Below the pieces are notes generated by a model. The model saw only the letters and a program-made list of their open reading frames with translations, was not told the DNA's origin and did no database searches. A DNA stretch of 64,000 nt from a virus: the IMG/VR virus record IMGVR_UViG_3300005573_000058, positions 74,662 through 138,661 of that record; one strand, given 5' to 3'. Below are positions 3,590-30,094 of this stretch, piece after piece. How positions within the stretch are numbered: position 1 is the stretch's first letter; the number at the start of each line of letters is the position of its first letter. The translations under genes and the position numbers were made by a program.

Positions 3590-3800
3590 CTTATATATAT
3601 ACTACTACTATATATATATTATTATTAATATATATATATAGTAGTAGTAATAGGTATAAAATTTTTATAAGCTGTTGAAAATCAATCATCGTTATGTGGA
3701 AAAAATGTGGAAAAGATGTGGATAAAATGTGGATAAAAATTTTTATCAACAGGTTTTCCACAGGTTTTCCACATAGTTATCCACAGGTTTTCCACATAAG
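3590..3800. promoter_or_regulatory. oriC-like element: AT-rich palindrome plus a cluster of DnaA-box-like 9-mers
   Basis: TGTGGAAAA 3695 and 3706; TGTGGATAA 3717 and 3728; TTATCAACA 3743; TTTTCCACA 3754, 3765 and 3788; TTATCCACA 3777; TGTTGAAAA 3673; palindromic tactactactatatatatat/atatatatatagtagtagta at ~3600-3649. Confidence 0.8.
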
Positions 3801-3891
3801 TTGTATGAACAGACAGAAGTATAATTTTACTGATTACTATCTGATATAAAAGGCGGGGCGTCGTAAGACGACGTCACCGCCGCCATAAAAA

Positions 3892-3965
3892 AACAGTTAA
3901 TAGAACAATGTCGCTGTAGTAACAGTTGTTAGAACGACACTGCTATAGTAACAGTTGTTAGAGCA
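3892..3965. repeat. ~29-bp tandem repeat x2.5; reverse orientation of the core of the 28-bp repeats
   Basis: AACAGTTRWTAGARC recurs three times. Confidence 0.7.
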
Positions 3966-4314: not shown

Positions 4315-4413
4315 CAATTGCAACTGCCACTGTTCATATAACTGCTACAATTGCAACTGCCATTGTTCATATATCTGCTACAATTGCAACTGCCATTGTT
4401 CACCTATCTGCTA
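4315..4413. repeat. 33-bp tandem repeat x3
   Basis: caattgcaactgccaYtgttcaNNtaWctgcta at 4315, 4348 and 4381. Confidence 0.95.
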
Positions 4414-4814: not shown

Positions 4815-4965
4815 TGCTACTGCCGTAGTATCTGTTATAAAGAGCAACTGTTATGCTGTAATATCTATTATAAAAGGCGACTGCCACTGTAGTAATATCT
4901 GCTATAAAAGGCGACTGCCACTGCTGTAATATCTGCTATAAAAGGCAGGCGTCATACTGCTGTAA
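4815..4965. repeat. 33-34-bp tandem repeat, about 4 copies
   Basis: tataaaaggcgactgccactg..gtaatatctgc at 4869 and 4903; partial copies at 4836 and 4937. Confidence 0.85.
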
Positions 4966-5368: not shown

Positions 5369-5564
5369 TTGCTCATATAACTGCTACAAGGAGAAATTGT
5401 TCTAATAACTGTTACAAAGAGATATTGTTCATATAACTGTTACAAAGAGATACTGTTCTTATAACTGCTGTATAGATACATTGCTCTTATAATTGCTACA
5501 AAGAGATATTGCTCTAATAACTGCTACAAAGAAATACTGTTCATATAACTGCTGTATAGATATC
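5369..5564. repeat. 28-bp tandem repeat x7 (iteron-like)
   Basis: near-identical to ttgttcatataactgttacaaagagata, with units at 5369, 5397, 5425, 5453, 5481, 5509 and 5537. Confidence 0.95.
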
Positions 5565-8564: not shown

Positions 8565-8619
8565 TTATAAAAAAACAAGGCACCACTGTTATCAGTGGTG
8601 CCTTAAAAAAGGAGGTTAT

Positions 8620-10774: not shown

Positions 10775-12862
10775 ATGAAAAATAAAAAGCAAGTTTTAAA
10801 AGCTGCCCCGATAAAATTGGTAAAGGGGCAGAGATTTGTAATGCTTAGACATATAGTAGTTAAGAAAGATGGTACATTTGAAATAACAGATGGTAAGTAT
10901 GTTAACATCGATGTAGGACAGAATAAATTAGCATTGAATATGTGGAGATATATGGCTAAATTTGTTGATGAAAAAGGTAAGAATATTGTACCATCAAAAG
11001 ATGTATTAAAAAAGTTAGAAGATCAATATGAAATTACATATATTCATACTGGTCATAGAGGAACTGAGGCTAGAGTATTGTTAAAGAAGTTCAACAAAGT
11101 TGAAAGATATCTGAAAGGATTACCTGTTGAAAAGAAAATAGCAAGAAGAAAGCTGTTTTTAAGAAGAAAGATAGACGACTTCAGATCATATGGTATAGAT
11201 AAAATAAGAATAATAAATGTTCCAAAAGAGTATGAAAAATATGTAGATGGTGTAATATTCTATAAAGGCAAAGAGATTATGAAAGGTGATAAGAACAGAA
11301 GAAACTTAGAAGGAGCAGAAGTGAAAGGATTTGCAAAAGGATCATTGATGAATGTTAATAAGTCAAAGTTCTTTAAGAAGTTAATAGGAGATGTACAAGA
11401 AGATGAATTAGTTATACCATCTTGTAACGTTAAAATGAGGAAAGATTTAAAATATACAATAGATGATATATGGATAGCTGAATATGCAAAGACAAGAGCT
11501 GTTGTTAAAGATGAATTAGAATATGGTATAGCAGCGATGATAAAAAATGTAAAACCTATTGATGTACCTGAATGGACATTAGAAAGGATATATGAACTTG
11601 TAAAGTTGACTGATAATGATAACATGGCAAGTGCATTGTTAAAGGCAGGTGTACCATTGAATGATCAGTATTTTGTTCAATCAGCAGAACCTATTATATC
11701 TGCTGAGATAAGTAGAATATTTAGAATCGGATATGGATTAACAGGATTTGCTGTTGCTCTGCCAAAGGCAGGTAAGGTTGATGAAATTGTCGTTGGTAAA
11801 AGAATTGCAAAGTGGTTGAATATAAAGAAAGGAGGAACTGTTGTTCTTACAAGAAATCCAATTCCAGGTATATTAGGACTACTGAGAGTAAAAGTTAAAA
11901 AGATTGTAGATAAAGATGTTATTTATGTTCATCCAGATATATGGACAGGTGTATTGAAAGGAGACTATGATGGTGATCTGTGTCAGTTGATTGTTGATTA
12001 TCCAGAGCTTAAAGAACATGCATTTGAGCCAGCTCATGCTCTAAAGCTAGTTGAAAAAGCAAATAAGATGATAGAGAAAGAAGATAGTACAGAAGAAAAT
12101 CTGCAGCAAACAGAACTTGATGTATATCATGCTATTGTATCAAATGCAGCTGCTGTAGGTATATTGACGATGGAATGGTTAGAAAGGATGAATGAATATC
12201 ATAAGATGTCAAAAGATAAAAGAGCTGTTCAAATGTATGTTGATTTTGAAGACATTCAAAAGAGTATAGATGGAATGAAACATGATGCATATAAGAATGC
12301 TGTTAAGCTTGCTGATAGAATTAAGAATATTATGAGAACGAGACAAGTAAATAGCTATTTAAGAGCTATAAGGAATGTTAATATATCTTATGAGAATAGA
12401 ATAGAAGTTATAAGAAGTGCAAATTATACATCAGATGATATTTATGAAAAGATTGTATGTAGAAGAAGAAATGCTATAAAGGGATTAGATAGTATTGGTA
12501 GTCAAACAGTTGAATATGATTATAGAAGTGCAGCAAAGAAGATGTTAAAAGAGGTTAATATCGACTCTGAAAGATTACAGAAAGCAAGACAGATGGTGAT
12601 TAAGTTTCATAGTAAAAATGGATATTCGGAAATGGCTACTATTGAGTTAGCTAAGAAGTTGTACAAAACGCTGAAGCTTAAAAAGAATATAGTAGCATTG
12701 CTAGAAGCAAGTACATATCCAAGAGGAGTTGGAAGAGCAGCAATGTTGAGTCTGCCAACTGCAAAAAAGATAGTGAAACTAGCAATTCAAGATATGAACG
12801 ATGTTAAAGAAATAATAGAACAAGATATAAAAGAAGTTAAGAAGATAATAAATCAGCCATGA
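10775..12862 (+). CDS. single-subunit double-psi-beta-barrel RNA polymerase (YonO / QDE-1 RdRP-like)
   Basis: YVDG, KGFAKG, LTRNP, catalytic GDYDGD, VGILT and SIDGMK occur in the order expected for YonO/RdRP-type enzymes. Confidence 0.8.
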   Translation: MKNKKQVLKAAPIKLVKGQRFVMLRHIVVKKDGTFEITDGKYVNIDVGQNKLALNMWRYMAKFVDEKGKNIVPSKDVLKKLEDQYEITYIHTGHRGTEARVLLKKFNKVERYLKGLPVEKKIARRKLFLRRKIDDFRSYGIDKIRIINVPKEYEKYVDGVIFYKGKEIMKGDKNRRNLEGAEVKGFAKGSLMNVNKSKFFKKLIGDVQEDELVIPSCNVKMRKDLKYTIDDIWIAEYAKTRAVVKDELEYGIAAMIKNVKPIDVPEWTLERIYELVKLTDNDNMASALLKAGVPLNDQYFVQSAEPIISAEISRIFRIGYGLTGFAVALPKAGKVDEIVVGKRIAKWLNIKKGGTVVLTRNPIPGILGLLRVKVKKIVDKDVIYVHPDIWTGVLKGDYDGDLCQLIVDYPELKEHAFEPAHALKLVEKANKMIEKEDSTEENLQQTELDVYHAIVSNAAAVGILTMEWLERMNEYHKMSKDKRAVQMYVDFEDIQKSIDGMKHDAYKNAVKLADRIKNIMRTRQVNSYLRAIRNVNISYENRIEVIRSANYTSDDIYEKIVCRRRNAIKGLDSIGSQTVEYDYRSAAKKMLKEVNIDSERLQKARQMVIKFHSKNGYSEMATIELAKKLYKTLKLKKNIVALLEASTYPRGVGRAAMLSLPTAKKIVKLAIQDMNDVKEIIEQDIKEVKKIINQP

Positions 12863-12874
12863 GCAAAAGTTACA

Positions 12875-12910
12875 AGAAGACCATAGACTCGTTCTATGGT
12901 CTTCTTTTTT
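12875..12910 (+). terminator. intrinsic terminator
   Basis: agaagaccataga-ctcgt-tctatggtcttct followed by a U-tract. Confidence 0.85.
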
Positions 12911-12932
12911 GATAAGTATAAATAATTGTATA

Positions 12933-13169
12933 TCAATGGAAATTGATAAGCTATATGATGCCAAATTAAGCATTAACTACATTTACATTCCGTTAATGCT
13001 TTCACTGGCATCATATATGCAGAAGTGAATAACTTCTGAAAAAAAATTTTTAAATTGAGATACAAGATTCAATGGAAATTGAAAGTTATCGAAACAGTTT
13101 ATTTTATTCCGCACATTTCATGTGCTTGTAAAATAAACTGTTTCAGAAGTGAACAGCTTCTGAAAAAAA
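12933..13169 (+). ncRNA. two tandem structured RNA-like units (136-nt period)
   Basis: conserved tcaatggaaattga(t)aag, then an unrelated long hairpin, then conserved cagaagtgaaYaRcttctgaaaaaaa. Confidence 0.5.
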
Positions 13170-13195
13170 TGTATATTTATTAAAAGGAGGTATAT

Positions 13196-13438
13196 ATGAA
13201 AGGAGACATGAAGAAGTCTGTATATGTAGATTATGATGAAGAAGCTAAAATGTATTATATCAGGGTCGTACATAGTTATAAAATAGAGCGTCCTCAGGAA
13301 AGACTAGGTAAGAAGATCAATAAGCCTGATTGGAGACAGATAAATAAGATTGTAAAAGTTATGCAAGAATTTTGGAACGTACAGCAGTATTTAGCTGATA
13401 TTTATAAAAGTAAAGAAAAATGTACAGGGGAGGAATAA
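13196..13438 (+). CDS. hypothetical protein
   Basis: RBS; 80 aa. Confidence 0.75.
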   Translation: MKGDMKKSVYVDYDEEAKMYYIRVVHSYKIERPQERLGKKINKPDWRQINKIVKVMQEFWNVQQYLADIYKSKEKCTGEE

Positions 13439-13502
13439 TGGATAATAAAGAGAAGTTAAATAGTTTATTTTTTTTAAAAAAAAATAACAAAAAGGAGGTT
13501 AA

Positions 13503-14660
13503 ATGAGTAATAAAACAATTCAAAGTAATGATTTATTAGTTTTGTCGCCAAAAGGTATAAAAGAGTTGGTAAGTTATTTTGTAAAGGCTGATATTCCTAT
13601 ATTGATCTGGGGTCAAACAGGAGTTGGTAAAACTCAGATAGTAAAACAGATCGCACAAGAGAATGGTTATGATATGTTAGCGTTGTATCTAAATCAAGCT
13701 GATACATTAGGTGATTTATTAGGATTGCCGTATGTGAATGCTGAAAAAGGTATAACTGAATTTTTACCGCCGCCAATAATTAAAGCAGCTGAACATGCTG
13801 AAAAGCCAACTATTTTATTCTTAGATGAGATAAACAGATGTAGGAAAGAATTTAGAAATGCTATATATAGGTTAGTTCAGGAGAGAGTATTAGATCAGAG
13901 GAAGTTAAATGTCAGAATAGTAGCTGCTGCGAATCCATCGACAGATAAATATTTTGATACAGAAGAATTTGATGAAGCATTTCTAAATAGATTTGCACAT
14001 GTTGGTATGAAATCTGATCTAACTGATTGGAAAGAATTTGCACATAGGAGAGGAGTCCATCCAACTGTTATTTCTTTTGCAAGTGAGTCAACAGCTTTTA
14101 GCAACGATCCTATAACATTTTCTAAGATAGTAACGCCAAGAGATCTTATTGAGAGTTTATCTAAGATTGTAAACATTATAGAAAATGATAAAGAACTTAC
14201 TGAAGACGATAAATATAGGTTAATCGAGGAATCAGCAAAAGCGATATTAGGAATAGGTAAAGGTATTGCTTATACAAAAATGTATAAAGATTTGGAAAAG
14301 CCAATTCAGCCAGATGAATGGTTGCTGTCATCTAAAGAGAATCTTTCTAATAAGCTGAATGAACTTATCAGCAAAGGTCAAACTGATATAGTTATTAGTT
14401 CAGTCTATAATATTGCAAGAATTGATGCAAAGAAGATAAATGATACATCAGCTAAGAAGATAATTAATGTATTATTAGAACAAACAGCTGAGATTATTGT
14501 TAATGCTATTATGATTTTGCCAGAAGTTGGACAAGATGTATATCAGAAGATTTTAGAGTTAGCTCCAAATGAAGCAAGAAAGTTAGTAAGTGTTTATACG
14601 GAAAAAATGGATTTATTTAATAAACAAACTAAGAATGCGAATGGGAAAAGTAAAAGTTAA
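13503..14660 (+). CDS. MoxR-family AAA+ ATPase
   Basis: Walker A GQTGVGKT; DLLGLP; Walker B LFLDEINR; AAANP; NRF; TPR. Confidence 0.92.
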   Translation: MSNKTIQSNDLLVLSPKGIKELVSYFVKADIPILIWGQTGVGKTQIVKQIAQENGYDMLALYLNQADTLGDLLGLPYVNAEKGITEFLPPPIIKAAEHAEKPTILFLDEINRCRKEFRNAIYRLVQERVLDQRKLNVRIVAAANPSTDKYFDTEEFDEAFLNRFAHVGMKSDLTDWKEFAHRRGVHPTVISFASESTAFSNDPITFSKIVTPRDLIESLSKIVNIIENDKELTEDDKYRLIEESAKAILGIGKGIAYTKMYKDLEKPIQPDEWLLSSKENLSNKLNELISKGQTDIVISSVYNIARIDAKKINDTSAKKIINVLLEQTAEIIVNAIMILPEVGQDVYQKILELAPNEARKLVSVYTEKMDLFNKQTKNANGKSKS

Positions 14661-14671
14661 AAGGAGGTAAT

Positions 14672-14902
14672 ATGAAAGATGTAAGAAATATTATTAAATT
14701 TTTAAAGGATGAAATAAGATGTATAAGACAGGAATATGATGTAGATTTATGGGATCAGACAGATATTTCATCGCTTGATAGTACAGAAGCATTTAATAGA
14801 GGTGTCTATAGAGCATATGTACAGATATTAGAGATGCTTGACAGTATTATTAAAAAAGAAGGTAAAGAAAATCATAGGAGGTTAAATGAGTCTAAAAGAT
14901 GA
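14672..14902 (+). CDS. hypothetical protein
   Basis: RBS; 76 aa. Confidence 0.7.
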   Translation: MKDVRNIIKFLKDEIRCIRQEYDVDLWDQTDISSLDSTEAFNRGVYRAYVQILEMLDSIIKKEGKENHRRLNESKR

Positions 14903-16826
14903 ACTCCAAAGAGTAAGAATGGCATCATTGTCAGATGAAGATTGGTTAGGAATATTCATATTAGAGTTTGCAAAAAGATATGAGTTTTATGGACATCTTG
15001 TGTATCAGTTTAGAAGAAGATTAGTTGATCAGAAGATATCATATATGGGTACGCCGTTGTTTATGCAGATTGAGATGCCACTTGGAAGTTCAACATTGAT
15101 AGATAGAAAATTTGTTGATGCAACTTTAGTATCATGTATTGAAAATATGAAAACACTGCCTTTTAATCAGGTGATTGGAATTTTGCATCATGAGATATTA
15201 CATTTTACTAATATGCATTCAATAAGAGGGTTAAATATTGCGAAACAAATAGCAAAAGAGGTAGGAGTATTAGATCCAAAAGAGTTATATGATAATCCTG
15301 TATTTACAGCAATTTTGAATATTGCTGCAGATGCATCTATTAATGAATATGTTAGGGAATTTGACGAATACAGAGATGGTATAGTTACGATATCTTCTAT
15401 CAACAAAGAATATAAACTGAAGTTAAGTCCTGGAGCATCTTTTGAAGAGATATTCTTCTCTTTATATAAATTTGAAAAAGATAAGATAAAGAAAGCGCAG
15501 AAAAGTATTCATGAAATAAGGAAAGTTATACAACAGATTAATCAGAAGATACAGCAAGCATCTCAGAATAGAAATAAGCAGATAAAGCAGATAACAGAGA
15601 AGCTAAAGAAAGAAGCAGGTGAGTATAATAGTAAAGCTAATAGCCAACAGAGTCAACAGTTGAAAGATCAGGCAGATAGTATAGATCAGAAATCTGATGA
15701 GATGAAAGATGCTGAGAGTAAAGGAGATAATAGAAAGCAGCAGCAAGTAGAAGATGAAATGAAGAAAATGGCAGGTCAAATGAAAGAGCAGATAGATGAA
15801 ACAGAACAACAACAGCAGGAAGAAGAAGGAAAAGATAACCTCAATAGAATGAAAGATTTAATTAAACAGTTAGAAGACATGTTAAATGGTCAGCAACAAA
15901 ATCAACAGCAAAATCAGCAACAAAATCAACAACATGAACAGGAAGAAGGTAACGATGAAGATCAAAGTGATCAACAGAATAATAGCAGTTTAAAAGATTT
16001 GATAAATCAGCTGGAGAAAAACTTTAGCAATCAGCTGAAAGAGTTAAGAAAGCTATTATCAACACCAATAGCTTTAGCTGATGAGAAAGATAAAGATAAT
16101 ATAGAACAGATGACAAAAGCAAAGATATATAATGCATATAAACAGACATCAGATAAAGGTAGAGGATCTATTCCATCGGACGTGTTAGAGATCATAGAAA
16201 GTATTGAAAAGCCAGTAAGTATACCTCTTCATCAGTTCTTAAGAAGAATAGCAAATAGTTATGCTAAACAGAATAGGACATTGTCGTTCAGGAGATATGA
16301 TAAAAGATATGGTACAGTGCCTGGTGATATAGTTAGTAATAAAGAGACTGTCGCATTTATATTAGATGTATCTGGTTCAATGTCAAATGAATTGTTAGCA
16401 GAGGGTGTTGCATTTTTGAATACTATATCGAAAGATTATGAAACTATTATGTGTCAGATTGATACTGAACTAAAATTAGATCGGATAAAAATACTAAATA
16501 GAAGAGTAGATAAACTAGAAGTCGAAGGCAGAGGCGGAACAGATTTTAACGATTTATTCAGATTAATGAAAGGTGAAGAACTGGAACAACATGAGATAAA
16601 GTATTATAAGTTGTTGAAAAGAGCTGCAACTGTGTTCATATTTACTGATACAAATGCTAGTATAGATACTAGAAGATATAATCAAAAAGAGATAAAACAA
16701 TCTGTTGTATTTATAACTGATAGTAAATATATATACAATGAAGTATTAGATTTTGGTGGTGTAGTTATAAAATATGATAAAAATAATAAGATATATGAAG
16801 TAATAAGAGGAGGCATATATGAATAA
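14886..16826 (+). CDS. VWA-domain metallopeptidase-like protein (DUF2201-type), MoxR partner
   Basis: HEILH; NIAADASIN; Q/E-rich linker; MIDAS DVSGS; GRGGTDF; FTD. Confidence 0.88.
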   Translation: MSLKDELQRVRMASLSDEDWLGIFILEFAKRYEFYGHLVYQFRRRLVDQKISYMGTPLFMQIEMPLGSSTLIDRKFVDATLVSCIENMKTLPFNQVIGILHHEILHFTNMHSIRGLNIAKQIAKEVGVLDPKELYDNPVFTAILNIAADASINEYVREFDEYRDGIVTISSINKEYKLKLSPGASFEEIFFSLYKFEKDKIKKAQKSIHEIRKVIQQINQKIQQASQNRNKQIKQITEKLKKEAGEYNSKANSQQSQQLKDQADSIDQKSDEMKDAESKGDNRKQQQVEDEMKKMAGQMKEQIDETEQQQQEEEGKDNLNRMKDLIKQLEDMLNGQQQNQQQNQQQNQQHEQEEGNDEDQSDQQNNSSLKDLINQLEKNFSNQLKELRKLLSTPIALADEKDKDNIEQMTKAKIYNAYKQTSDKGRGSIPSDVLEIIESIEKPVSIPLHQFLRRIANSYAKQNRTLSFRRYDKRYGTVPGDIVSNKETVAFILDVSGSMSNELLAEGVAFLNTISKDYETIMCQIDTELKLDRIKILNRRVDKLEVEGRGGTDFNDLFRLMKGEELEQHEIKYYKLLKRAATVFIFTDTNASIDTRRYNQKEIKQSVVFITDSKYIYNEVLDFGGVVIKYDKNNKIYEVIRGGIYE

Positions 16827-17283
16827 AAATGTAATAATTGCCTATGTAGATGGATCTTGGTCATCTAAAAATCCTGATATATCAGGATATGGTGTTGTCA
16901 TTACTGATGTCAATAACAATGTAATTTATGTAGATAAAGGTTATATTACAGGAGATGCTACAGTAATGAGACAAGTAGCTGGGGAAGTAGAATCAGTTGT
17001 AAGAGCTGTTGATTATGCAATAAAGAATAAATATAGTAAGATTGTTATTAAGTATGATTATGAAGGAGTAAGAAGTTGGGTTACAGGTGACTGGGAAACA
17101 AGGAATGAGTGGACAAGAAGATATTCAGAATGGATGGATGATGCGAAGAAAAAAGTGCTGATCAAATTTGAAAAAATAGAATCAAAAGATAATGTAGCAG
17201 ATATAATGGCAAGAGCATATACGAAAGCAGGAGATGTTCATAATAGTGAGAGTAAGTTAAAGAAGGAATTTGATTTAAGATAA
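16819..17283 (+). CDS. rnhA: ribonuclease HI
   Basis: YVDGS; GYGVV; RQVAGE; YDYEGV..W; NVAD..A. Confidence 0.9.
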   Translation: MNKNVIIAYVDGSWSSKNPDISGYGVVITDVNNNVIYVDKGYITGDATVMRQVAGEVESVVRAVDYAIKNKYSKIVIKYDYEGVRSWVTGDWETRNEWTRRYSEWMDDAKKKVLIKFEKIESKDNVADIMARAYTKAGDVHNSESKLKKEFDLR

Positions 17284-17321
17284 AGACAGTTATTATAGAA
17301 AGAGTAAAAAAGGAGGTAAAT

Positions 17322-17810
17322 ATGAATAGATTTCCAGTTTGTGCTGCTTTTTATTATGTTATAGCTAAAAGATTAGGATATAAAGAAGATGAAGCGAAGA
17401 GTTTAGGATTAGCAAGAGCAATATTTTTTGCAGCAGCAAAGACAGGATTTAAAAAAGGAACAGGGAAAGTTACAGGTTATGTTAGTTCAGATAAAAAGAC
17501 AACGAAATCTAATATTGTACCAAAACAGATCATGTTTGCAGGTCTTTATACGACAGTAGTAGAAAAGAACGGCGAGTTAAGAGCTGTTGTAGGAAAAGTT
17601 ATTGATCCTAAGCAGTTTGATAGATCAGTTATAAAGTCAAAGTTTAATCTTATATCACCTAAATCATTTGACTATTTTTGTGCAAAGGTAAATGATCTTA
17701 TATCAGACTATACAAATGAAGAGTTGAATAATAGTAAGTTAGCTTATAGTTTATATCAGAGGATAAGAGATGAATACAGAAGTGATGAGTTTTACAAAGA
17801 GGTAAAATGA
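17322..17810 (+). CDS. hypothetical protein
   Basis: RBS; N-terminal NRFPV...AKRLGY..DEA.SLG. Confidence 0.85.
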   Translation: MNRFPVCAAFYYVIAKRLGYKEDEAKSLGLARAIFFAAAKTGFKKGTGKVTGYVSSDKKTTKSNIVPKQIMFAGLYTTVVEKNGELRAVVGKVIDPKQFDRSVIKSKFNLISPKSFDYFCAKVNDLISDYTNEELNNSKLAYSLYQRIRDEYRSDEFYKEVK

Positions 17811-18367
17811 TATATCCAATGAGTCCTGTTCCATTACTAAATCCTAAACTATTAGGCGATGTAAGAAGATATTGGCTGAACTATAAATATGATGGCTGGA
17901 GATTAATAGTAGATAAAGGTAAATTTTTTTCTAGAAGGGGGAACGAGCTGAAAGGATGGATAGGACTTGATAGATTTAAAGATCTAGGTTATGAATATCC
18001 TCTTGATTGTGAGCTCATGACGTTGGATATGAAAAGAACATCTATACCATCTGTTAAAAATCAAGATGTAGCTGTTCTTATTATATTGGATGTAATAGTA
18101 GAAGATGTTCCTATAGAAGATAGAATATCATTATTTCCATCTATCTATAATAACTGTAGATATAAACATTGTGAATTTTATAGTATTGAAAATGTGGACG
18201 ATATAAATAGGTATTTAGAACAGGCTATAAGAACAGGATACTGTGATGGCATTGTATTAAAAAAGAAAAACAGCTTATATTATCCTGGAAGGGAAGAGCA
18301 GATTATGAGCGTTGATTGGATAAAGGTAAAAGAGAGAATAAAAGAAAATAAAAAGGAGGTCATATGA
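17807..18367 (+). CDS. minimal ATP-dependent ligase (adenylation domain only)
   Basis: motif I KYDGWR; III LDCEL; IIIa LDV; IV DGIVLK; V WIKVK; ends right after motif V. Confidence 0.85.
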   Translation: MIYPMSPVPLLNPKLLGDVRRYWLNYKYDGWRLIVDKGKFFSRRGNELKGWIGLDRFKDLGYEYPLDCELMTLDMKRTSIPSVKNQDVAVLIILDVIVEDVPIEDRISLFPSIYNNCRYKHCEFYSIENVDDINRYLEQAIRTGYCDGIVLKKKNSLYYPGREEQIMSVDWIKVKERIKENKKEVI

Positions 18368-18732
18368 ATGGTGATATATTATTGTCAACTTTAACAAACG
18401 TAGCTGTTAAAAGGATATCTGATGAAATGTATGAAGTTATAGTTGATGAGTTAGATAGACATAATGATAAAATAGCTGTATATGTGAAGTTTGTATATGG
18501 TAAGATAATATTAACAGACGACGAATATTATTATTATGATATAATATCATGTCACGATTCATTTGATGTTCGACAGGAGGTTTTATCTATAATAAGTAAA
18601 TATAATGTAAAATTAATTAGGAATGAACTGGTTATGGAGACAAATGAGAAGAACTTAAAAGAAGATTTTATAAACTATGTAAAAGCAATAAAAGCGTTGA
18701 ATACTTATTTTGATACATATAAGAAAGTATAA
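18364..18732 (+). CDS. DUF1828-like protein
   Basis: LDRHND.I..YV...IILTDD. Confidence 0.7.
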   Translation: MNGDILLSTLTNVAVKRISDEMYEVIVDELDRHNDKIAVYVKFVYGKIILTDDEYYYYDIISCHDSFDVRQEVLSIISKYNVKLIRNELVMETNEKNLKEDFINYVKAIKALNTYFDTYKKV

Positions 18733-18752
18733 ATTTAGAAAAGGAGGTAATT

Positions 18753-19064
18753 ATGAATAAGCAACAATTAAAAGAAGAACTTAAAGATGTTAAAATATTA
18801 TATTTTGTTTCCAAAAATTCAACTTATACGAATTGGAATGTGTATTATGTAAAGGATAATAGATTACATCAGATATGGATCGACACAGATGAAAAAGATA
18901 TTCCAACGTTTTGGATACCTGAACATATAACGAAAAAAGGAAATCGAATAGGTGGATATTTTCAGAATACTGTACTAGGTAGTAGTAGAGTATTTGAGAT
19001 AGCATTAAGTCTTAGTAGATGGCTATATAATGGTGAGCATGAATTTGATTATGTGATTTTATAG
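18753..19064 (+). CDS. hypothetical protein
   Basis: RBS; 103 aa, directly upstream of the RT. Confidence 0.8.
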   Translation: MNKQQLKEELKDVKILYFVSKNSTYTNWNVYYVKDNRLHQIWIDTDEKDIPTFWIPEHITKKGNRIGGYFQNTVLGSSRVFEIALSLSRWLYNGEHEFDYVIL

Positions 19065-19078
19065 AAAGGAGGTTGAAA

Positions 19079-21238
19079 ATGGATAAAAGTATTTTAGCAA
19101 CATATGTATATACGTTATATACATCGTTGAAAAACTCTATAGAAAAATTATATAGTAGTAGTCCGCAAATTAAAAAAGATATTCTTACAAATAGATATTT
19201 TATGCCAGATTACAAAAATGAGTATGTTAAAGAATTTATAAAAAAGAAAAGGACAGGTGGTATAAGAAGAATATATGAGCCATCAGGAGAGTTGAAAGAA
19301 GTTTTAGTTAATTTTGATTTATTTATGAAGTCTATATGGCTGTTTGATAATAATTATAATTATGTTATAATGAGGAAGGACGATGAAGAAGATGATGTAA
19401 CAAGTTATATAGAGAAGTACAAGTATATTAAATATAAAAATAATACAGCATTTATATTATCAACAAGAGGATCTAGTGTAGCAGGATTTGAAAAGATGAT
19501 AGAAGATTACTTTTTATCTAAAAATCCAGATGATTATTTGATCATTAAAACAGATGTGAAAGATTTTTTTACATCTGTAAGATATGATGTGATGGCAAAT
19601 ATATTCAAAACAGTATATAGTGATTTATATAATAATTTTAGTGAGTTGACAGCTCAAATAGGTATTACGCCTTTAGAAGATTTCTTAAGTGTAATATCAG
19701 ATGCTTTGGCATTATCGTTTTATAAAGGATCGTTACCGCAAGGTTTTCCGACATCTCCGTTGTTATCATATTATTATATAATAGGTAATAAGCTTTTATG
19801 TAGTGAAACTTTTTCTTTAAAACTGGCAAAGCTTTCTGCTAGAGATAAAGATAAATATAACAGAGATGACAGTTTTTATATCTGCAATAAAATACCTATT
19901 AGTTTGACAACAAGACAAAAGTTAGACTATATAATAGATACTATCTGTACTAAAAAGGCTGATCTGAACAAAGAGATAATAAAGGTAAGAATAGAAGATA
20001 TAGTTACAAGATATGCATCTGATATATTTTTAAATGTAATATTACAATATCCAATAAATAAGTTAGTTCATTTAAAAAAGGATCCTAAAGCAGATACTAA
20101 TAGACTTAGTTGTACATTTTCTATAGTAAACTATGTCGATGATGTTCTATTTATTATGAATAATGTGTTGATTAGAGAAGTCAGAAAATGGCAATCAAGA
20201 AAGGAATATATGAAAGCGCTTTCAGGAGATATAAAGAATAGTATTGGTATAGGATTAGATAGAGATTTAGTTAATATGGTATATAGTGCAATTATGTATA
20301 AATTAACTGATGTATTAATGTATTTCTATTTTAATCCTGTAGATGTCCTGAATAAGAAATCTCTATCTAGACCTATGGTAATAAATAGTTATAAAATAAA
20401 TGCAACAGTAAATGTCTTGTCATATCCTGAGATAGCAGATTTGTTTTTAAAATGTTTTGTTAAGGTAAAAGAGAAATATGATAATACAACTGATACGAAT
20501 GAGAAGAATGTATATCTAAGTCTTTTGTATAGATTCTTGTTGATAGATGAACTTTATGTCAGCTTATATGATGCAGAAAGTATACTGCAAGAATATAATT
20601 TCTTAAAATATAGCGATTTATATAAGCAATATAAAGAGAAGTATTTAGCACTATCTGATTTTTATCCTGAGTTGGACAAGTCGATATATTTAGATAAGTC
20701 TACTGGAACAGTAGAAAAATTAGCAAAAGAGCTGGAGGATATGCTTTATAAAGATGATATAGATGCATATATGATTAGAATAATTGGACTGGATAAGATT
20801 GGACAGGTTATTAAGTTATATGGTAATTCATATGTAAAAGAAGAAAATGGAATATTGTATTATGATGGTGTACCAGCATTCAGTCATAGAAAAACTAGAG
20901 TTATGTTCTTTAAAACGTTGAAGAAAGTATTAGGTATGATATGGATGAAGAATGGTAAATTATCTCCAGCAAAGTATAAATCGTACAGAGAGCAGATATT
21001 TCAGATTTTGAAAAAAATTAAAGAAAAGCCCTTGACAAAACAGGAAATTAATATTATAATTAAGATGGACGTAAAAGATTATATAAAACAGATAGATGGT
21101 TATTTTTCTTATGCAGAAGAGTTGAAATCAGTAAGTGATAGGAGAGCGTTTAAGGAATTTAAAGATATGTATAACAAATTCAAAGAATATGTTGCTAGTT
21201 TAGAAGAAGTAGAACAAAAACAAGGAGGTAGTATATGA
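19079..21238 (+). CDS. reverse transcriptase, retron-like, with two large insertions
   Basis: KKRTGGIRRIYEP; KTDVKDFFTSV; LPQGFPTSPLLS; NYVDDVLF; KTRVM...VLG; IDGYFSY; AAGGAGG RBS favours ATG 19079. Confidence 0.9.
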   Translation: MDKSILATYVYTLYTSLKNSIEKLYSSSPQIKKDILTNRYFMPDYKNEYVKEFIKKKRTGGIRRIYEPSGELKEVLVNFDLFMKSIWLFDNNYNYVIMRKDDEEDDVTSYIEKYKYIKYKNNTAFILSTRGSSVAGFEKMIEDYFLSKNPDDYLIIKTDVKDFFTSVRYDVMANIFKTVYSDLYNNFSELTAQIGITPLEDFLSVISDALALSFYKGSLPQGFPTSPLLSYYYIIGNKLLCSETFSLKLAKLSARDKDKYNRDDSFYICNKIPISLTTRQKLDYIIDTICTKKADLNKEIIKVRIEDIVTRYASDIFLNVILQYPINKLVHLKKDPKADTNRLSCTFSIVNYVDDVLFIMNNVLIREVRKWQSRKEYMKALSGDIKNSIGIGLDRDLVNMVYSAIMYKLTDVLMYFYFNPVDVLNKKSLSRPMVINSYKINATVNVLSYPEIADLFLKCFVKVKEKYDNTTDTNEKNVYLSLLYRFLLIDELYVSLYDAESILQEYNFLKYSDLYKQYKEKYLALSDFYPELDKSIYLDKSTGTVEKLAKELEDMLYKDDIDAYMIRIIGLDKIGQVIKLYGNSYVKEENGILYYDGVPAFSHRKTRVMFFKTLKKVLGMIWMKNGKLSPAKYKSYREQIFQILKKIKEKPLTKQEINIIIKMDVKDYIKQIDGYFSYAEELKSVSDRRAFKEFKDMYNKFKEYVASLEEVEQKQGGSI
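21032..21060 (+). promoter_or_regulatory. perfect sigmaA/70 consensus promoter inside the RT gene
   Basis: TTGACA-aaacaggaaattaatat-TATAAT (17-bp spacer) with an A-rich upstream tract. Confidence 0.75.
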
Positions 21239-21459
21239 AAAAGCTGCCAAATGAGTTATGGTCGCCTAATAAAGTTAAAATATTTGGTAAAGGTCAGTTA
21301 TCAGATAACGAGTTTACAAGGCTAGTTATAGCTATTGATAATCTTATGTCAAGTATCGCTGAATATGATAGTGAATATTATTCAAATGGTGAGATGAATT
21401 TACATTATAAGTGCGGCAATTGGAATATAATGATAACTATTAATGATGAGGAAGTTTAA
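21235..21459 (+). CDS. hypothetical protein, translationally coupled to the RT
   Basis: ATGA overlap; AGGAGG RBS. Confidence 0.75.
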   Translation: MKKLPNELWSPNKVKIFGKGQLSDNEFTRLVIAIDNLMSSIAEYDSEYYSNGEMNLHYKCGNWNIMITINDEEV

Positions 21460-21482
21460 TACTATTCAAAAAGGAGGTAGTA

Positions 21483-21596
21483 ATGGTTAATGTAATAGTA
21501 TATTTTGTAACAATTATTGTTGTTATTGCTGCTGATTATATGTTGCAGAGATATATGGAATATAGAAGAAATAGATTTGTTATTAATGAGCCATAG
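21483..21596 (+). CDS. small membrane peptide (absent from the track)
   Basis: AAGGAGG RBS; MVNVIVYFVTIIVVIAADY... Confidence 0.6.
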   Translation: MVNVIVYFVTIIVVIAADYMLQRYMEYRRNRFVINEP

Positions 21597-21608
21597 TTAG
21601 GAGTTGTT

Positions 21609-22478
21609 ATGCCTAATTGGTGCGAAGATTATTTGACAATAATAACAGAGAGAAAAAATAAAGAAAGAGTAGATGATATTTTTAGAAGTATATATAATCT
21701 GGAAGAAGTATTTGAAGGAACAAAAGATATATCAGATGTGTTAAAATTGCAGAAGTTTAAATTGCTGAATAAAAAGCGGCTGAGAAGTATCAGATCATCT
21801 ATATTGAACGAAAGAGTTGTTATAGATAAAAATATATTAACTGAAGATAAATGGATACGGATCAATTATGATAATATCAGAGATGAGATCTTTAGTTTTG
21901 TTGGTAGTATAAGAAGTAAAGAATATAAGAATTATCTTAATGTAAATGCTACAGAAAGTAATGTGAAAGAAGTGTACGAGGTAAAAGGAGTTTCGTATAT
22001 AGGTATGAAAATTACGATAGCAGTTGATAGAAAATTAGAAAACTTTTATAAAGAAATTGACGATCCGATATCAGCAACTGTAACCTTTCAATCGGCATGG
22101 TCAGCACCAACTAGTTTTTTCAGTCATATTTGTGATATATTTAAACGTCATAAGAAAAATGCTCATATTATACTTCGAACGTTTGAGCCTGGAATGGGAT
22201 TTTCTGAAAGGTTAGATGTACGCTTATCTACTAATATGTCAGTTATATATGTTTCGACATTGTTGGAAGCAACAGAATGTCCTTCCTGTCATGAAATGTT
22301 TTCTAAACTTACTACAATGGTAACAGGATATTTGGAAGTTTTAGATAGGTGTCCAAGATGTGGCTGTCCACTTGATAATTTCTCATTTGATTATAATGAT
22401 ACTGTTTTGTCGAAACTGTTAAATAGAATAGATAATTATATAAGTATGAAATATGAAATAAAAAGAGGTGGAAAATGA
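21609..22478 (+). CDS. YubB/DUF1281 ferredoxin-like protein with a C-terminal zinc ribbon
   Basis: MPNWC; FQSAWSAP; FEPGMGF; CPSC...CPRC. Confidence 0.75.
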   Translation: MPNWCEDYLTIITERKNKERVDDIFRSIYNLEEVFEGTKDISDVLKLQKFKLLNKKRLRSIRSSILNERVVIDKNILTEDKWIRINYDNIRDEIFSFVGSIRSKEYKNYLNVNATESNVKEVYEVKGVSYIGMKITIAVDRKLENFYKEIDDPISATVTFQSAWSAPTSFFSHICDIFKRHKKNAHIILRTFEPGMGFSERLDVRLSTNMSVIYVSTLLEATECPSCHEMFSKLTTMVTGYLEVLDRCPRCGCPLDNFSFDYNDTVLSKLLNRIDNYISMKYEIKRGGK

Positions 22479-23470
22479 AAATAGCATTGTATTCAGATGT
22501 ACATTTGAAACTTGATGTTGGTAAGCAATATGTTGAAAGGTTAGAAGAGTTAGAGCAGTTTTATAAATATTTAGAGAAGAACGATGTTAAAAAGATATTC
22601 TTTTTAGGCGATTTGTTTCAAAGAAAGTATATATTAGAAGATGTTTTGATCCATTATGTATCTAAGTTTTTTGCATCTAAGAATATAGAGACTTACTTCT
22701 TGGTAGGTAATCATGATAAAGGTATAAATGATATAAATTTAATGTCGTTTTTGATATTAAAAGATATATATCATATAATTGATGAATATCAGTATGTTGA
22801 TATTGATAATGTTAGATTACATCTACTACCATGGAAGAGAGAATTTCCTGATCTAGGTATGGTAGAAATGTCGAATTCTAAAAAGAATTTTCTGTTAATG
22901 CATTTTTATCCAAGATGTGTAGTAGAATATGATAATATAAAGTATGTTATCAGTTCGTCTAAAAAAGATAGTTTTGATATGAATGCTGTTAAAGATTTTG
23001 ATAAAGTTGTAACAGGTCATCTACATTATCCGTTTATAAAAGATAATTTGATTGTAGTAGGTTGTTTATTTCCAACATCTTTCGCTGAGACATTTGATAC
23101 AAAATTTATTGTAATGGATACTGAGACTGTAACTGTTGAGAATGTATCAACATCATCAGTTGTTGATTATCCAAAGTACGTAACGCTAGATGTAAAAGAT
23201 GTTGATATAAATAATATAAAAGAAAGTAAAAACTATTATAGAATAATATACAATGATGTAAAAGATATTGAAAGAATAAGGTCGAAAGTGAATATTGACA
23301 GAATACAGTTCGTCTATGAAAAAGTGAGAAGATATGATGATAATAATGAACTTGTGTCTTTCGATCTTGATCTATTATCATTGTTTAAAACGTTCATTGA
23401 CGATAAAGTGGAAGATAGTGAGAAAGAGAAGATGATAGAAAGATTTAAAGATTTTGAAAAAAGGAGGTAA
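22475..23470 (+). CDS. sbcD: SbcD/Mre11 (gp47-like) metallophosphoesterase nuclease
   Basis: SDVH; GDLF; GNHD; GHLH. Confidence 0.9.
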   Translation: MKIALYSDVHLKLDVGKQYVERLEELEQFYKYLEKNDVKKIFFLGDLFQRKYILEDVLIHYVSKFFASKNIETYFLVGNHDKGINDINLMSFLILKDIYHIIDEYQYVDIDNVRLHLLPWKREFPDLGMVEMSNSKKNFLLMHFYPRCVVEYDNIKYVISSSKKDSFDMNAVKDFDKVVTGHLHYPFIKDNLIVVGCLFPTSFAETFDTKFIVMDTETVTVENVSTSSVVDYPKYVTLDVKDVDINNIKESKNYYRIIYNDVKDIERIRSKVNIDRIQFVYEKVRRYDDNNELVSFDLDLLSLFKTFIDDKVEDSEKEKMIERFKDFEKRR

Positions 23471-23472
23471 AG

Positions 23473-23628
23473 ATGAAAAAAGTAAAAATAGTAGAAGTTG
23501 GTGAAAAAGATATTGAAATTGATGGTAAAAAAGTAGAAGAAACAAGAATAGATTTAATATTGAAAAATCTAATAGAAGAAGGTTATAAGTTAATGTTTGT
23601 AAAAAAGGAGGTGTATCATGAAAGATAA
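23473..23628 (+). CDS. hypothetical protein (absent from the track)
   Basis: AAGGAGG RBS; 51 aa. Confidence 0.6.
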   Translation: MKKVKIVEVGEKDIEIDGKKVEETRIDLILKNLIEEGYKLMFVKKEVYHER

Positions 23629-23839
23629 GAAAGGAGAAAAAGTAAAAGTTGGAATTTCTGTTAATGAAAATGGTTTGTATGAAATTGAAGAGTTTGTGGA
23701 AGATGATGATAGAGATTATGATGTTATAATAGAACTCGATAAAGAAAAATCTGATAGATGGTTCAAGATATTTGTAGATTTTTGGAAATTACAGTTTGAA
23801 TTAGAAGATATTTGTAAAGTGTATAAAAGGAGGAGGTAG
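23618..23839 (+). CDS. hypothetical protein
   Basis: RBS; 73 aa. Confidence 0.7.
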   Translation: MKDKKGEKVKVGISVNENGLYEIEEFVEDDDRDYDVIIELDKEKSDRWFKIFVDFWKLQFELEDICKVYKRRR

Positions 23840-23841
23840 TT

Positions 23842-25107
23842 ATGGAATTGAATGATTTGCTATCAGGTCTAATAGATAAGATCTCATTATATTTAGGTAG
23901 TAAGTTTACGATCGAATACGAAGGTGCAGAAGAAGGTGTAATTAATGTTGATAAAACATATCTTCAATTCAGCATGCCATATAACGAGTTACCAAGATTT
24001 GTAAAGAGGAAGATAGAAGGTGATTACGATAAGAAGAAAGTATACATTTATACAACTAATAATGTTGGTTCTATAACGAGTGGTATAGATGATATTCGGA
24101 AACAAATGATAATATTACAGTTGAATATTATGCTGTCTAATTTAGAGATAGGTAAAAAATATGGAGTATGGTATATATCTAGGTCAGCGCTTGATAATTT
24201 ATTTTCACGTATAAAAGAATCAAGACACTATATTACTCGGCTTCTTAATATAGGTCGTTATAAAAAGACACATGTTGAAGATATAATGAAATTTGCATTT
24301 AACAATGTTACATTGAATCCAGATAGAAAATATACAGATTTTAGAATAAAAGAAGATCACATTTTTAAAGACTATTTGTCAGCTGAAGTATCTCGTATGT
24401 TAATTGATACATATCTACAAACGTATAATGGTAATCTAAAGAATATAGTATTTTCGTTAGATTTATTTAAAGATATAGAATATGGCAGGTATACGAGTAA
24501 GCTTCGTGAAGGCAAACAATCTGTGTTTAGGGGCAAAAAAGGAAAACCTATTAATCTGGTAAGAGTTGAAAACGGTGAGCTACTAATGAGTTTATCAGGA
24601 AAAAAAGAAAAGAAGGATAACGATGAAGTAAAACGGCTTGGTCTAAAAACGTTGTTAAATGTTATTATGTATGTTAAGAAGGTAATTACTGAACATAATC
24701 TTTCAAGCTATATGCATTTTGAAATTAGTCAGTATAATAATGATAGCCGTTACGTGGCAGCGTATAAACTTATAGAGCAAGGATTGTTATTGTTTAAAGT
24801 TCAGAGAGATGAGGAAGATGCATTTAGAACTGTGCCGTTAGAAAATATATTAGTAATGGTTGATGAAGATGGTAAAATGATAGATACAATGCAGGAGTTA
24901 TCCATTTATATGCCGATATTAAAACCAGCAGTGAACAAGTATAAAAACGCAATTAAATATGATGAATTATTTGGAACTGATACTTGCGATTTTAGTTTAT
25001 TTGCTAATATGTTAGAAGATGCAAGGAATAATTCTGAGATAACTGAAGGTAGTTACACAAGAAATGATTTATACTATGTTCCGTTGTTTGAAATTAAACA
25101 TAAATAA
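23842..25107 (+). CDS. hypothetical protein
   Basis: 421-aa ORF with RBS; no recognised motif. Confidence 0.85.
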   Translation: MELNDLLSGLIDKISLYLGSKFTIEYEGAEEGVINVDKTYLQFSMPYNELPRFVKRKIEGDYDKKKVYIYTTNNVGSITSGIDDIRKQMIILQLNIMLSNLEIGKKYGVWYISRSALDNLFSRIKESRHYITRLLNIGRYKKTHVEDIMKFAFNNVTLNPDRKYTDFRIKEDHIFKDYLSAEVSRMLIDTYLQTYNGNLKNIVFSLDLFKDIEYGRYTSKLREGKQSVFRGKKGKPINLVRVENGELLMSLSGKKEKKDNDEVKRLGLKTLLNVIMYVKKVITEHNLSSYMHFEISQYNNDSRYVAAYKLIEQGLLLFKVQRDEEDAFRTVPLENILVMVDEDGKMIDTMQELSIYMPILKPAVNKYKNAIKYDELFGTDTCDFSLFANMLEDARNNSEITEGSYTRNDLYYVPLFEIKHK

Positions 25108-25119
25108 AAGGAGGTGAAT

Positions 25120-25323
25120 ATGAACGCATTTGAAAAGTATATAAATGATCAAATAGAAGCAACAGGAAATTGCAATCCAGATGATTATTCTAAATTAGAA
25201 CGTACAATGATGAGTATAATTAACAAGTTTTTTGTCATGATTAAAGAGGAATATGATAAATTAGACGATGCAGAGAAAACAAGACCAGATGCAAAAGATG
25301 TAAAAATGAAACCATTATTTTAA
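25120..25323 (+). CDS. hypothetical protein
   Basis: RBS before ATG 25120. Confidence 0.7.
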   Translation: MNAFEKYINDQIEATGNCNPDDYSKLERTMMSIINKFFVMIKEEYDKLDDAEKTRPDAKDVKMKPLF

Positions 25324-25337
25324 AAAGGAGGTGTGTT

Positions 25338-25979
25338 ATGAGTATAAAAGAGTTAGAAAAAGAGTTGAAAATAGAAACAAAAGAGGAAAAGATAGCTACA
25401 GGATATATAACTTTAGAGTATGACGAAATAACATATAAAGACTATAAATTGACTGTGAAACCAGTATATGATAGTGAAGTATATGATATCTTGTATGATG
25501 GCTTAAAGGAAAACTACGATTGCATTTTGGTTAATTATCATAGGGATTTTCATGTCACAAGTGATATAATTGATGAAGAGACAGTAAGAGGGTTATATAC
25601 AGGTGAAATAGATTGGGATAAAAAAGAGAAAGAATTAAGATATTGGATATTTTATTTGAGTTGCCTAATTCATGGCGAAGTTTGGTTAAAATTAGGTTAT
25701 ACTGGTTTTAGTAGTGATCCTGGTGGATGGGATACATCACATGTTGGTTTAGTTCTGGTTAGGAAAGATATATATAAAACTAGAAAGGAAGCAGAACAGG
25801 CTGCAGTAAATTATGTTGGAATCTGGAATAAGGTATTGAGTGGTGACGTCTATGATGTGAAGGTATATAAGAATGAAGAAGAAATAGATAATTTTGTTGC
25901 TGTTGGTAAAGACGAAGTATATGAGTATATAAATAATATTGAGAACAATAATAACAAAGGAGGTAACTATGAAAATTAA
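25338..25979 (+). CDS. phage hypothetical protein
   Basis: RBS; WDTSHVG and W...LSGDVY motifs. Confidence 0.8.
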   Translation: MSIKELEKELKIETKEEKIATGYITLEYDEITYKDYKLTVKPVYDSEVYDILYDGLKENYDCILVNYHRDFHVTSDIIDEETVRGLYTGEIDWDKKEKELRYWIFYLSCLIHGEVWLKLGYTGFSSDPGGWDTSHVGLVLVRKDIYKTRKEAEQAAVNYVGIWNKVLSGDVYDVKVYKNEEEIDNFVAVGKDEVYEYINNIENNNNKGGNYEN

Positions 25980-26457
25980 GTTACTTAATGTAAGGAAAGG
26001 TATAGGTAAAGTAGTAAGTTTCGTAGATGTTGGATTTTTTGGTAAAGATGAAAGTACACCATTAATTACGTATAGGAGTATTCCTATATTAAAAGGTGGC
26101 AATTCGTTATATGCAATTGTTGATGTTCCAGCAAGAAATGGTGAAGGAAAAGTTCAGAGAAGATCTAAAGATCAAAAACCGTTTATTCAAGTATATTTTT
26201 CTCAACAGGTTAAAGATAAGATAATAGAACTGTATAGTAGTTATGCGAATAGTGATCCATCTGTTATAAATAATGTTAATACTTCAGGTAAGTCGAGTGG
26301 TATGAAATCACCGAAGAAAGTGTATAGTGGCGGAAATAAATATAGTCCAAAAGCTAAATATACTCCAACAGAAGATGATATAGATCCAAATGTTAATACG
26401 AACGATGATGAATTTGAACTTGATGAGCCAGGTAATAATGATGAAGAAGAAATATAA
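25969..26457 (+). CDS. SpoVG-like protein with an acidic tail (putative SSB)
   Basis: beta-rich N-terminus resembling SpoVG; C-terminal DDEFELDEPGNNDEEEI. Confidence 0.55.
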   Translation: MKIKLLNVRKGIGKVVSFVDVGFFGKDESTPLITYRSIPILKGGNSLYAIVDVPARNGEGKVQRRSKDQKPFIQVYFSQQVKDKIIELYSSYANSDPSVINNVNTSGKSSGMKSPKKVYSGGNKYSPKAKYTPTEDDIDPNVNTNDDEFELDEPGNNDEEEI

Positions 26458-26482
26458 CAAATGAATGAAAAAGGAGGTATAT

Positions 26483-28467: not shown

Positions 28468-28480
28468 AAAAGGAGGTTAT

Positions 28481-29725: not shown

Positions 29726-29750
29726 ACAAAAAATAAGAAAGGAGAATTGT

Positions 29751-30086: not shown

Positions 30087-30094
30087 GAGGTCAA

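Follow-up and report, generated by a model that had tools for sequence, protein, structure and literature searches.

In phage early mRNAs, hairpins such as the R sites of T7 and those of SP82 serve in RNase III processing or act as 5′ stabilisers, and we know of no RNase III site that includes constant flanking hairpins like P1 and P3 described below. The nut sites of lambdoid phages contain the boxB hairpin, which is bound by the N peptide, and the loop sequences of lambda nutL and nutR are used here as the comparison for the two copies of P3. Small RNAs of the OmrA/OmrB type are adjacent duplicates with shared ends and a divergent middle; they carry intrinsic terminators, and their single-stranded conserved 5′ end pairs with targets. 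GNRA-like pentaloops in which one base is looped out and contacts a protein occur in P22 N–boxB and in a CRISPR RNA, according to excerpts of PMC12550061, and the features of retron non-coding RNAs given in part of PMC13402713 are flanking inverted repeats (IRa1 and IRa2), a branching G and an opposing G. Here we analyse two tandem RNA-like units at positions 12933–13169 of a 64,000-nucleotide (nt) stretch of DNA (the window), which comprises bases 74662–138661 of the linear IMG/VR virus record IMGVR_UViG_3300005573_000058 (138,661 nt, estimated to be 80% complete, 29% G+C). The virus comes from a hot-spring metagenome.

The feature proves to be real; it occurs nowhere else in this genome, and no relatives turned up in the collections searched. 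The sequence at 12933–13169 reads as a preliminary description of this DNA had it, and resolves into unit A (12931–13046) and unit B (13068–13169), each of which runs in the order P1, P2, P3 and A-tract on the + strand. P1 is a small hairpin with a GGAA loop: in unit A (12931–12948) it has 7 base pairs (bp) and a GNRA tetraloop, with the invariant core TCAATGGAAATTGA at 12933–12946, and in unit B (13068–13083) it has 6 bp. This core, which had been noted as a shared 5′ flank, occurs exactly twice, at 12933 and 13069, 136 nt apart. P3 reads CAGAAGU-GAAUA-ACUUCUG in unit A (13020–13046), forming 7 bp and a GNR(N)A-type pentaloop followed by A8 at 13039–13046, and CAGAAGU-GAACA-GCUUCUG in unit B (13144–13169), followed by A7 at 13163–13169. 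The two loops differ at loop position 4 only, the stem of P3(B) can be extended to 9–10 bp (13141–13165), and the 26-nt block from CAGAAG to A7 is 92% identical between the units. Both copies of the 3′ hairpin and A-run reported earlier are recovered by the 22-nt pattern CAGAAGTGAA-NNN-CTTCTGAAA, which matches twice (13020 and 13144, 124 nt apart) and is matched by 0 of 100 shuffles. The whole 138,661-nt record holds only these two copies of the module.

Between the constant flanks lie the P2 hairpins, which had been described as unrelated in sequence and similar in shape. P2 of unit A (12952–13017) consists of 12 bp, a 4 × 4 internal loop and a further 10 bp (22 bp in total) below a 14-nt apical loop; P2 of unit B (13091–13144) consists of 15–17 bp, a 3 × 2 internal loop and 6 bp (21–23 bp in total) with a 3-nt loop, and directly abuts P3 of its unit. 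The inverted repeats are present as expected (12952–12977/12992–13017, 26 nt, 85%; 13091–13106/13129–13144, 16 nt, 100%), and no similarity between the two cores could be aligned with MAFFT. The conserved blocks stop exactly at the hairpin borders. The units are separated by a spacer, TTTTTAAATTGAGATACAAGA (13047–13067), containing the 3′ arm of an alternative helix with 12926–12942 that would enclose unit A.

In both units, folding is far more stable than in shuffled sequence. Unit A reaches −39.3 kcal/mol (z −8.35) and unit B −34.2 kcal/mol (z −7.38), energies that 0 of 200 shuffles match, and the − strand gives weaker z-scores of −6.70 and −5.17. The GNRA (GGAA) and GNR(N)A (GAAUA/GAACA) loops are present on the + strand only. 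Two differences between the units fall within stems. The sixth pair of P1 is A–U in unit A and U–A in unit B, so that pairing is kept; the T previously taken as an insertion is better read as this substitution. The seventh pair of P3 is U–A in unit A and U·G in unit B, a change tolerated by + strand RNA only. The z-scores, the loops and the changes that keep pairing are compatible with tandem units acting as + strand RNA, compatibility being what they offer the general idea. The pseudoknot that had been proposed between the apical loop and the 5′ flank falls to chance level: the 8/9 complementarity is a genuine string match in unit A, but 23% of shuffled loops equal it, and the counterpart in unit B is equalled by 64%.

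Tentatively, we favour the reading that the locus is a tandem duplicate of an orphan three-hairpin non-coding module, which would form a structured 5′ leader on the + strand with P1 and P3 as recognition elements and P2 as a double-stranded RNA (dsRNA) element. The units occupy a 333-nt gap (12863–13195) between open reading frames (ORFs) of 695 and 80 amino acids, one of only two gaps longer than 300 nt in 8–54.5 kb of the window. All genes lie on the + strand from the window start to about 55.8 kb, a direction shared by the units. The gap is bordered on the left by an intrinsic terminator (12874–12906, + strand; 14-bp stem, 5-nt loop, T6), which ends the upstream 695-residue ORF (10775–12862, + strand) and bears out the earlier report of a terminator just upstream of the units. 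On the right, a GGAGG at 13186–13190, 23 nt downstream of the units, precedes the 80-residue ORF (13196–13438, + strand) that opens a gene run extending to about 31362. A simple terminator scan of this run (13196–31362, 18 kb) found one weak + strand terminator-like site only, at 25661. The units therefore stand directly after a strong terminator and head 18 kb with a single weak terminator-like site, which supports the leader reading. Because the upstream terminator is strong and internal terminators and other gaps are almost absent, a promoter for the 18-kb run is expected in or near the gap.

On the favoured reading, the module would be transcribed, with the + strand sequence, as the 5′ leader of the replication and reverse transcriptase (RT) gene run that starts at 13196. 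P1 (GGAA) and P3 (GAAYA plus the A-tract), which are conserved in sequence, would be recognised by a sequence-specific RNA-binding factor, as boxB and Cas6-type hairpins are. P3 and its A-tract also repeat a punctuation of hairpin, A-run and Shine–Dalgarno (SD) sequence that is seen ahead of other genes of the phage, at 8565–8619 and in the early cassettes. The P2 pair keeps only its size (21–23 bp, about two helical turns) and would supply dsRNA elements that are either cut, as RNase III sites are, or shield the transcript in the way of 5′ stabilisers. Anatomy, non-randomness, genomic uniqueness and position of the module are established; its transcription and strand, a binding factor and processing are inferred. 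P2(A) has 22 bp and P2(B) 21 bp, and early-cassette hairpins of 20–22 bp recur in the phage. Conserved AT-rich long hairpins of this length are found in early cassettes at window positions −2415, −1034 and 403, with extended forms at 1445 and −1672.

Several observations weigh against a duplicated leader. We were unable to place a promoter upstream of unit A, and the sole sigma-70-like + strand site in the gap, TGAACA-16-TATATT at 13150–13177, lies inside and just after P3(B); were it used as the promoter, both units would be left untranscribed. CAGAAGT, the 5′ arm of P3, is about sixfold enriched in non-coding DNA, and a DNA-binding motif fits this equally well. The covariation comes from a pair of sequences and is without statistical weight: 263 of 500 shuffles equal it. 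The folding energy of P1 is about 0 at 65 °C or above, so P1 may not exist as a free RNA hairpin at hot-spring temperature; P2 and P3 persist at 75 °C, with a stability close to that of the phage terminator at 12874–12906 (−19.9 kcal/mol at 37 °C, −6.9 at 75 °C). No RNA run was found among those carrying the stretch. The window is matched almost letter for letter by two DNA runs with the label hot-springs metagenome, but they consist of contigs that are possibly the source of this record and so provide no independent support. The contig of run X2 has a single difference from the window in 2.2 kb (12000–14200), T13104A, and this sole variant breaks one P2(B) pair without compensation; one event proves nothing, fitting a fast-changing payload or weak constraint alike. 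Finally, scans of IMG/VR, metagenomes and GTDB yielded no homologue of the module that would show conservation.

The main point for a different account, in which the units act at the level of DNA, is the sigma-70-like site with its −35 element in the P3(B) loop. This account, which we consider the most probable of the alternatives, though at low confidence, takes the palindromes TCAAT-N4-ATTGA and CAGAAGT-N5-ACTTCTG as operators or recombination-type sites, P3(B) and its A-tract as part of the promoter of the operon at 13196, and the long palindromes as cruciform or origin-like elements near replication genes. The site at 13150–13177 matches consensus at 9 of 12 positions, with the −10 element after the A-tract; CAGAAGT, GAACAG and TGAACAG are enriched three- to sixfold in non-coding DNA and recur in early-region palindromes; iterons and palindromes are abundant in the non-coding DNA of the phage; and P1 is too weak as an RNA hairpin at 65 °C or above. 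Conversely, a promoter at 13150–13177 would start transcription about 12 nt before the ATG, and P3(A) has no usable −10 element at the matching distance. The motifs are confined to this locus, with only two copies in the record, so that P1 and P3 do not constitute a general promoter for a phage RNA polymerase (RNAP), and GC skew does not turn at the units, for which reason an origin of replication there was rejected. The G·U pair, the GNRA-type loops and the A–U to U–A swap would be meaningless for a double-stranded operator.

Words of this kind are spread through the non-coding DNA. CAGAAGT has 10 of its 37 sites in the 6% of DNA that is non-coding (examples are at window positions −2408, −2396, 410, 422, 2412, 3814, 13020 and 13144), and GAACAG/TGAACAG is three- to fivefold enriched there. 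The combination CAGAAGT-(AT)-GAACAG is common to early-cassette hairpins and P3(B), and may be a binding word of a phage factor. The early region also contains iteron-like clusters of short direct repeats with periods of 23–37 bp and 84 bp, rich in AACTGTT/AACAG (window −12820 to −12640, 3757–3960, 4315–4370, 4869–4913 and 5405–5560). Tracts of T5–9 followed by A6–9, or the reverse, recur just upstream of genes, at 13467–13486, 13039–13054, 31580–31600 and in early cassettes; the tract at 13467–13486 is of low complexity and for that reason attracts contigs of other organisms to a very high depth. Farther downstream, the 14-mer TGAACTTTTTGTTT occurs twice, at 31462 and 31529 (67 nt apart), ahead of a gene of 1,499 codons. 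Each copy lies 11–12 nt upstream of a TATAAT-like hexamer, with a TTGACA promoter-like site following, and the arrangement looks like a pair of activator-type promoters.

The spacing of the units is also that of genes. A 30-codon ORF (MEIDK...YMQK; 12936–13028, + strand) runs from an ATG in P1(A) to a TGA at the apex of P3(A), and the matching frame of unit B (13072–13152, + strand; 81 nt) meets an early TAA at 13129–13131 that would leave a peptide of 19 amino acids. The distances from ATG to TGA, 93 nt (unit A) and 81 nt (unit B), are both multiples of three, and in each unit the distance from the end of P3 to the next ATG is exactly 33 nt; the frame-matched TGA at the P3 apex and this 33-nt spacing imply that the units occupy gene-like slots. 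A stop codon at a hairpin apex is moreover the geometry of five real genes of the phage (window −2490, −1741, −1115, 3042 and 9170), in which the stop codon falls in the loop of the terminator hairpin and the last codons form its 5′ arm. Two tandem micro-genes, or the decayed copies of a single one, are nevertheless an unlikely reading of the units. Neither ATG has an SD sequence within 20 nt, whereas a 5-mer SD sequence precedes at least 64 of 119 longer genes (counted with unrefined gene starts), and the ATG is buried in P1. The unit B frame is closed by TAA at codon 20, a near-perfect hairpin makes up about 70% of each 'gene', and MEI is all that the two peptides share. By our own estimate, the probability of an open 30-codon frame by chance is roughly 0.08 at this base composition.

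No known family accounts for the units. At gathering scores, Rfam 15 matched nothing in the whole window except a tRNA at 2553–2627. Searching 12700–13400 at E values up to 10 gave 8 weak matches, all well short of their gathering scores, the best at 20.9 bits against a cut-off of 47.3 and none to msr, and ARAGORN found 0 tRNA or tmRNA genes in 12000–14000. The Rfam search suggested in the preliminary description thus matched no family, and the further units that it proposed to look for in related phages did not appear in the IMG/VR, metagenome or GTDB scans. The exact flank pattern had 0 matches in IMG/VR; a single exact match to P3 there lies inside a 421-residue ORF and was taken as chance. 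Searches of IMG/VR anchored on proteins (the 695-residue ORF, its profile, the primase-helicase and the RT) returned no useful relative; the AAA ATPase yielded a single relative at 27% identity (L003), which was set aside. One locus (L004) came from the metagenome scan, but the RNAP homologue runs off the end of its contig, so that the gap downstream is missing. The profile of the 695-residue ORF found no relatives among GTDB genomes, and blastn against a phage collection found no match. A word-indexed protein search recovered three homologues of the 695-residue ORF, at 40–43% identity.

The absence of homologues from the collections searched is also what would be seen if the units were functionless debris, that is, a recent local duplication whose middle was replaced by new palindromes through fold-back or template switching. 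The palindromes are perfect or near-perfect (16/16; 12 + 10), as young ones would be, the flanks are nearly identical, the phage is rich in palindromes, and the uncompensated single-nucleotide change is tolerated. We nonetheless think it improbable that this accounts for the locus. The conserved blocks end exactly at hairpin borders, both cores reach about 22 bp independently, and a 333-nt gap has been retained in an otherwise tightly packed module.

The constant handles around an exchangeable payload could instead point to small RNAs that are released from the leader and act in trans, as decoys or mimics directed at a host system. They might imitate a CRISPR repeat, through P3 and its 8-nt tail or through P1 and ATTGAAAG, or serve as dsRNA decoys. 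Such action in trans we judge unlikely, if a little less so than debris. P3, a hairpin with a GNR(N)A pentaloop and an 8-nt tail, broadly resembles a class 1 repeat of the hairpin type, and the n4–n5 insertion variant of the GNRA-like pentaloop occurs in a CRISPR RNA (excerpts of PMC12550061). Phage-borne solitary repeat units (SRUs) act as RNA anti-CRISPRs according to part of PMC10651486, and the sole variant in 2.2 kb hits a payload hairpin. The handle ATTGAAAG is indeed present at 13078–13085, as had been noted, but in unit B only; unit A has ATTGATAAG instead. Rfam gave no significant CRISPR-DR match (best E value 9.6). A GTDB scan for arrays with repeats ending in GAAATTGAAAG gave at least 120 stretches, of which loci with three or more matches were compared; the arrays listed include Bacteroidota, cyanobacteria and Omnitrophota. 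In none of these listed arrays is the P1 hairpin present or the handle preceded by TCAATGG, and the overlap reaches 12 nt at most (L080). The suggestion of a CRISPR RNA (crRNA) mimic thus finds no backing in these comparisons. P3 has no relative in IMG/VR, neither unit is followed by a terminator, and complementarity of the cores to the phage genome is within chance: as antisense to the phage's own genes, the best off-site matches score 28.2 bits, which 52% of 150 random segments equal.

The locus was likewise rejected as a CRISPR array or mini-array, for which we took at least two direct repeats of 24–48 nt with spacers of about 30–40 nt; the constant blocks here measure 14 and 26 nt, with distances of 136 and 124 nt between copies. 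No phage-borne CRISPR array was found in the record, and no array-like repeat there resembles the unit blocks. SRUs are defined by near full-length similarity to a CRISPR repeat, with coverage of at least 90% in SRUFinder, according to excerpts of PMC10651486. Only 8–12 nt of the units match any GTDB repeat listed, and they were not classed as an SRU (RNA anti-CRISPR, Racr). A broader version of action in trans is a new phage RNA cassette in which P1 and P3 with its A-tract would be invariant protein-binding handles that present an exchangeable dsRNA payload of about 22 bp, the whole being excised from the leader to serve either as a decoy against a host defence that senses nucleic acids or as a substrate for the phage's own retron-like RT with RNase H and ligase; to this, too, we attach a low probability.

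The last possibility bears on the other proposal of the preliminary description, msd-like RT templates. The 721-residue ORF at 19073–21238 is a true, if divergent, retron-like RT, as judged from its motifs DVKDFF, LPQGFPTSP and YVDD (about 110 residues separate the second and third) and its model matches. It has partial matches to the PADLOC models RT_III-A (E value 3.1e-10), RT_XIII (9.8e-10) and RT_II-A (4.3e-9) and a match to the NCBIfam retron St85 RT model (9e-11, well below the model cut-off), and all 30 of its nearest Atlas clusters belong to one family set, PF00078 RVT_1. There was no Pfam RVT match at E values up to 1 and none among PDB sequences, and a word-indexed search of 5.8 billion proteins found only two distant homologues, which align over 30% of the query at about 30% identity. 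A perfect + strand sigma-70 consensus, TTGACA-17-TATAAT (12/12; 21032–21060), lies within the RT gene at its 3′ end and precedes two small ORFs led by SD sequences, of 74 amino acids at 21235 and of 37 hydrophobic amino acids at 21483.

That the units are msr–msd-like templates or primer RNAs for this RT is the account to which we assign the lowest probability. RT motifs and retron-type model matches do occur in the same gene run, RNase H and a ligase domain are encoded between the units and the RT, and a long hairpin beside a short one recalls msd and msr. Because the RT gene has no non-coding room beside it, the unit gap is left as the run's only structured non-coding stretch. A 17-nt helix of 82% identity (12926–12942/13049–13065), followed by a G, can close around unit A. 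However, the RT lies 5.9 kb and nine ORFs downstream, and most of the hallmarks of a retron are missing. The enclosing helix, one among 27 inverted repeats in 500 nt, is in competition with P1, and for unit B the corresponding helix has 5 bp at most (ATACA/TGTAT). The opposing G is missing: G12938 follows the 5′ arm, whereas an A (13053) precedes the 3′ arm. P3 and its A-tract have no retron counterpart, Rfam gave no match, msr included, and no joined or shortened DNA form was seen in the two DNA runs, which provide contigs only.

The packed run after the gap encodes, in its first part, the 80-residue ORF, an AAA ATPase, a DUF2201/VWA protein, RNase H, a ligase domain and DUF1828, followed by the 721-residue RT, a phosphoesterase, an SbcC-like protein, a DNA polymerase and a primase-helicase. 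Library scans gave no family match for the 80-residue ORF and neighbouring small ORFs. Upstream, the 695-residue ORF had been called an RNAP. It has no match in Pfam or PHROGs, but a profile built from it and its three homologues (4 sequences) matches chains 8h2n and 8h2m of the P23-45 RNAP, a tape-measure-fused enzyme of a Thermus phage, at E values of 0.006–0.01, centred on a GDYDGD segment. This weak match hints at an RNAP, and phages of the P23-45 kind can carry two paralogous two-barrel polymerases with different promoter motifs (part of PMC10770324).

If functional, the module would represent a structured RNA motif not described before. It comes from a lineage of thermophilic phages of which hardly any relatives have been sequenced and which carries two putative small two-barrel RNAP paralogues and a divergent retron-like RT. 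Constant handles around a swapped hairpin would then be a natural scaffold for presenting RNA hairpins, and the units a possible link between the phage RT and its template. If the locus is only a duplicated leader or palindromic debris it is ordinary, and mainly shows how readily this genome makes hairpins.

Compared with known systems, the units share partial features with each. Like the RNA anti-CRISPRs and SRUs of which part of PMC10651486 gives an account, they are intergenic, non-coding and hairpin-bearing small elements of a phage, and ATTGAAAG of unit B resembles the 8-nt 5′ handle of many type I and III crRNAs; unlike them, unit A lacks the handle, and near full-length repeat similarity is missing among the arrays listed. 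With retron msr–msd they share a short hairpin by a long variable one and a retron-like RT in the same gene run, but they are not next to the RT, their flanking inverted repeats are weak or absent, they come as two tandem units with an extra P3 hairpin and A-tract, and they have no branching-G/opposing-G pair. As in OmrA/OmrB, tandem units have near-identical 5′ and 3′ ends and a different centre; here, however, A's and not U's come after the 3′ hairpin, and a closed hairpin forms the centre.

P3 differs from lambdoid boxB in having a 7-bp stem followed by an A-tract and in occurring in tandem rather than in two operons, there are almost no internal terminators to be read through, and library scans of the neighbouring small ORFs found no N-type protein family; nor was a boxA-like element identified, though no search aimed at one was made. 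It resembles boxB, for which the P22 loop is GACAA, in being a short hairpin with a G-A-A-N-A pentaloop that could adopt a GNRA-like fold; its copies differ only at one loop position and the closing pair, and the putative leader lies downstream of a terminator. The P2 hairpins depart from RNase III sites in the placement of the internal loop, after 12 bp in unit A and 15–17 bp in unit B. They match RNase III sites and 5′ stabiliser hairpins in their leader or intercistronic location, in their length of about two helical turns, in the internal loop, in a shape that is alike where the sequences are unrelated, and in being followed by a small hairpin and a ribosome-binding site.

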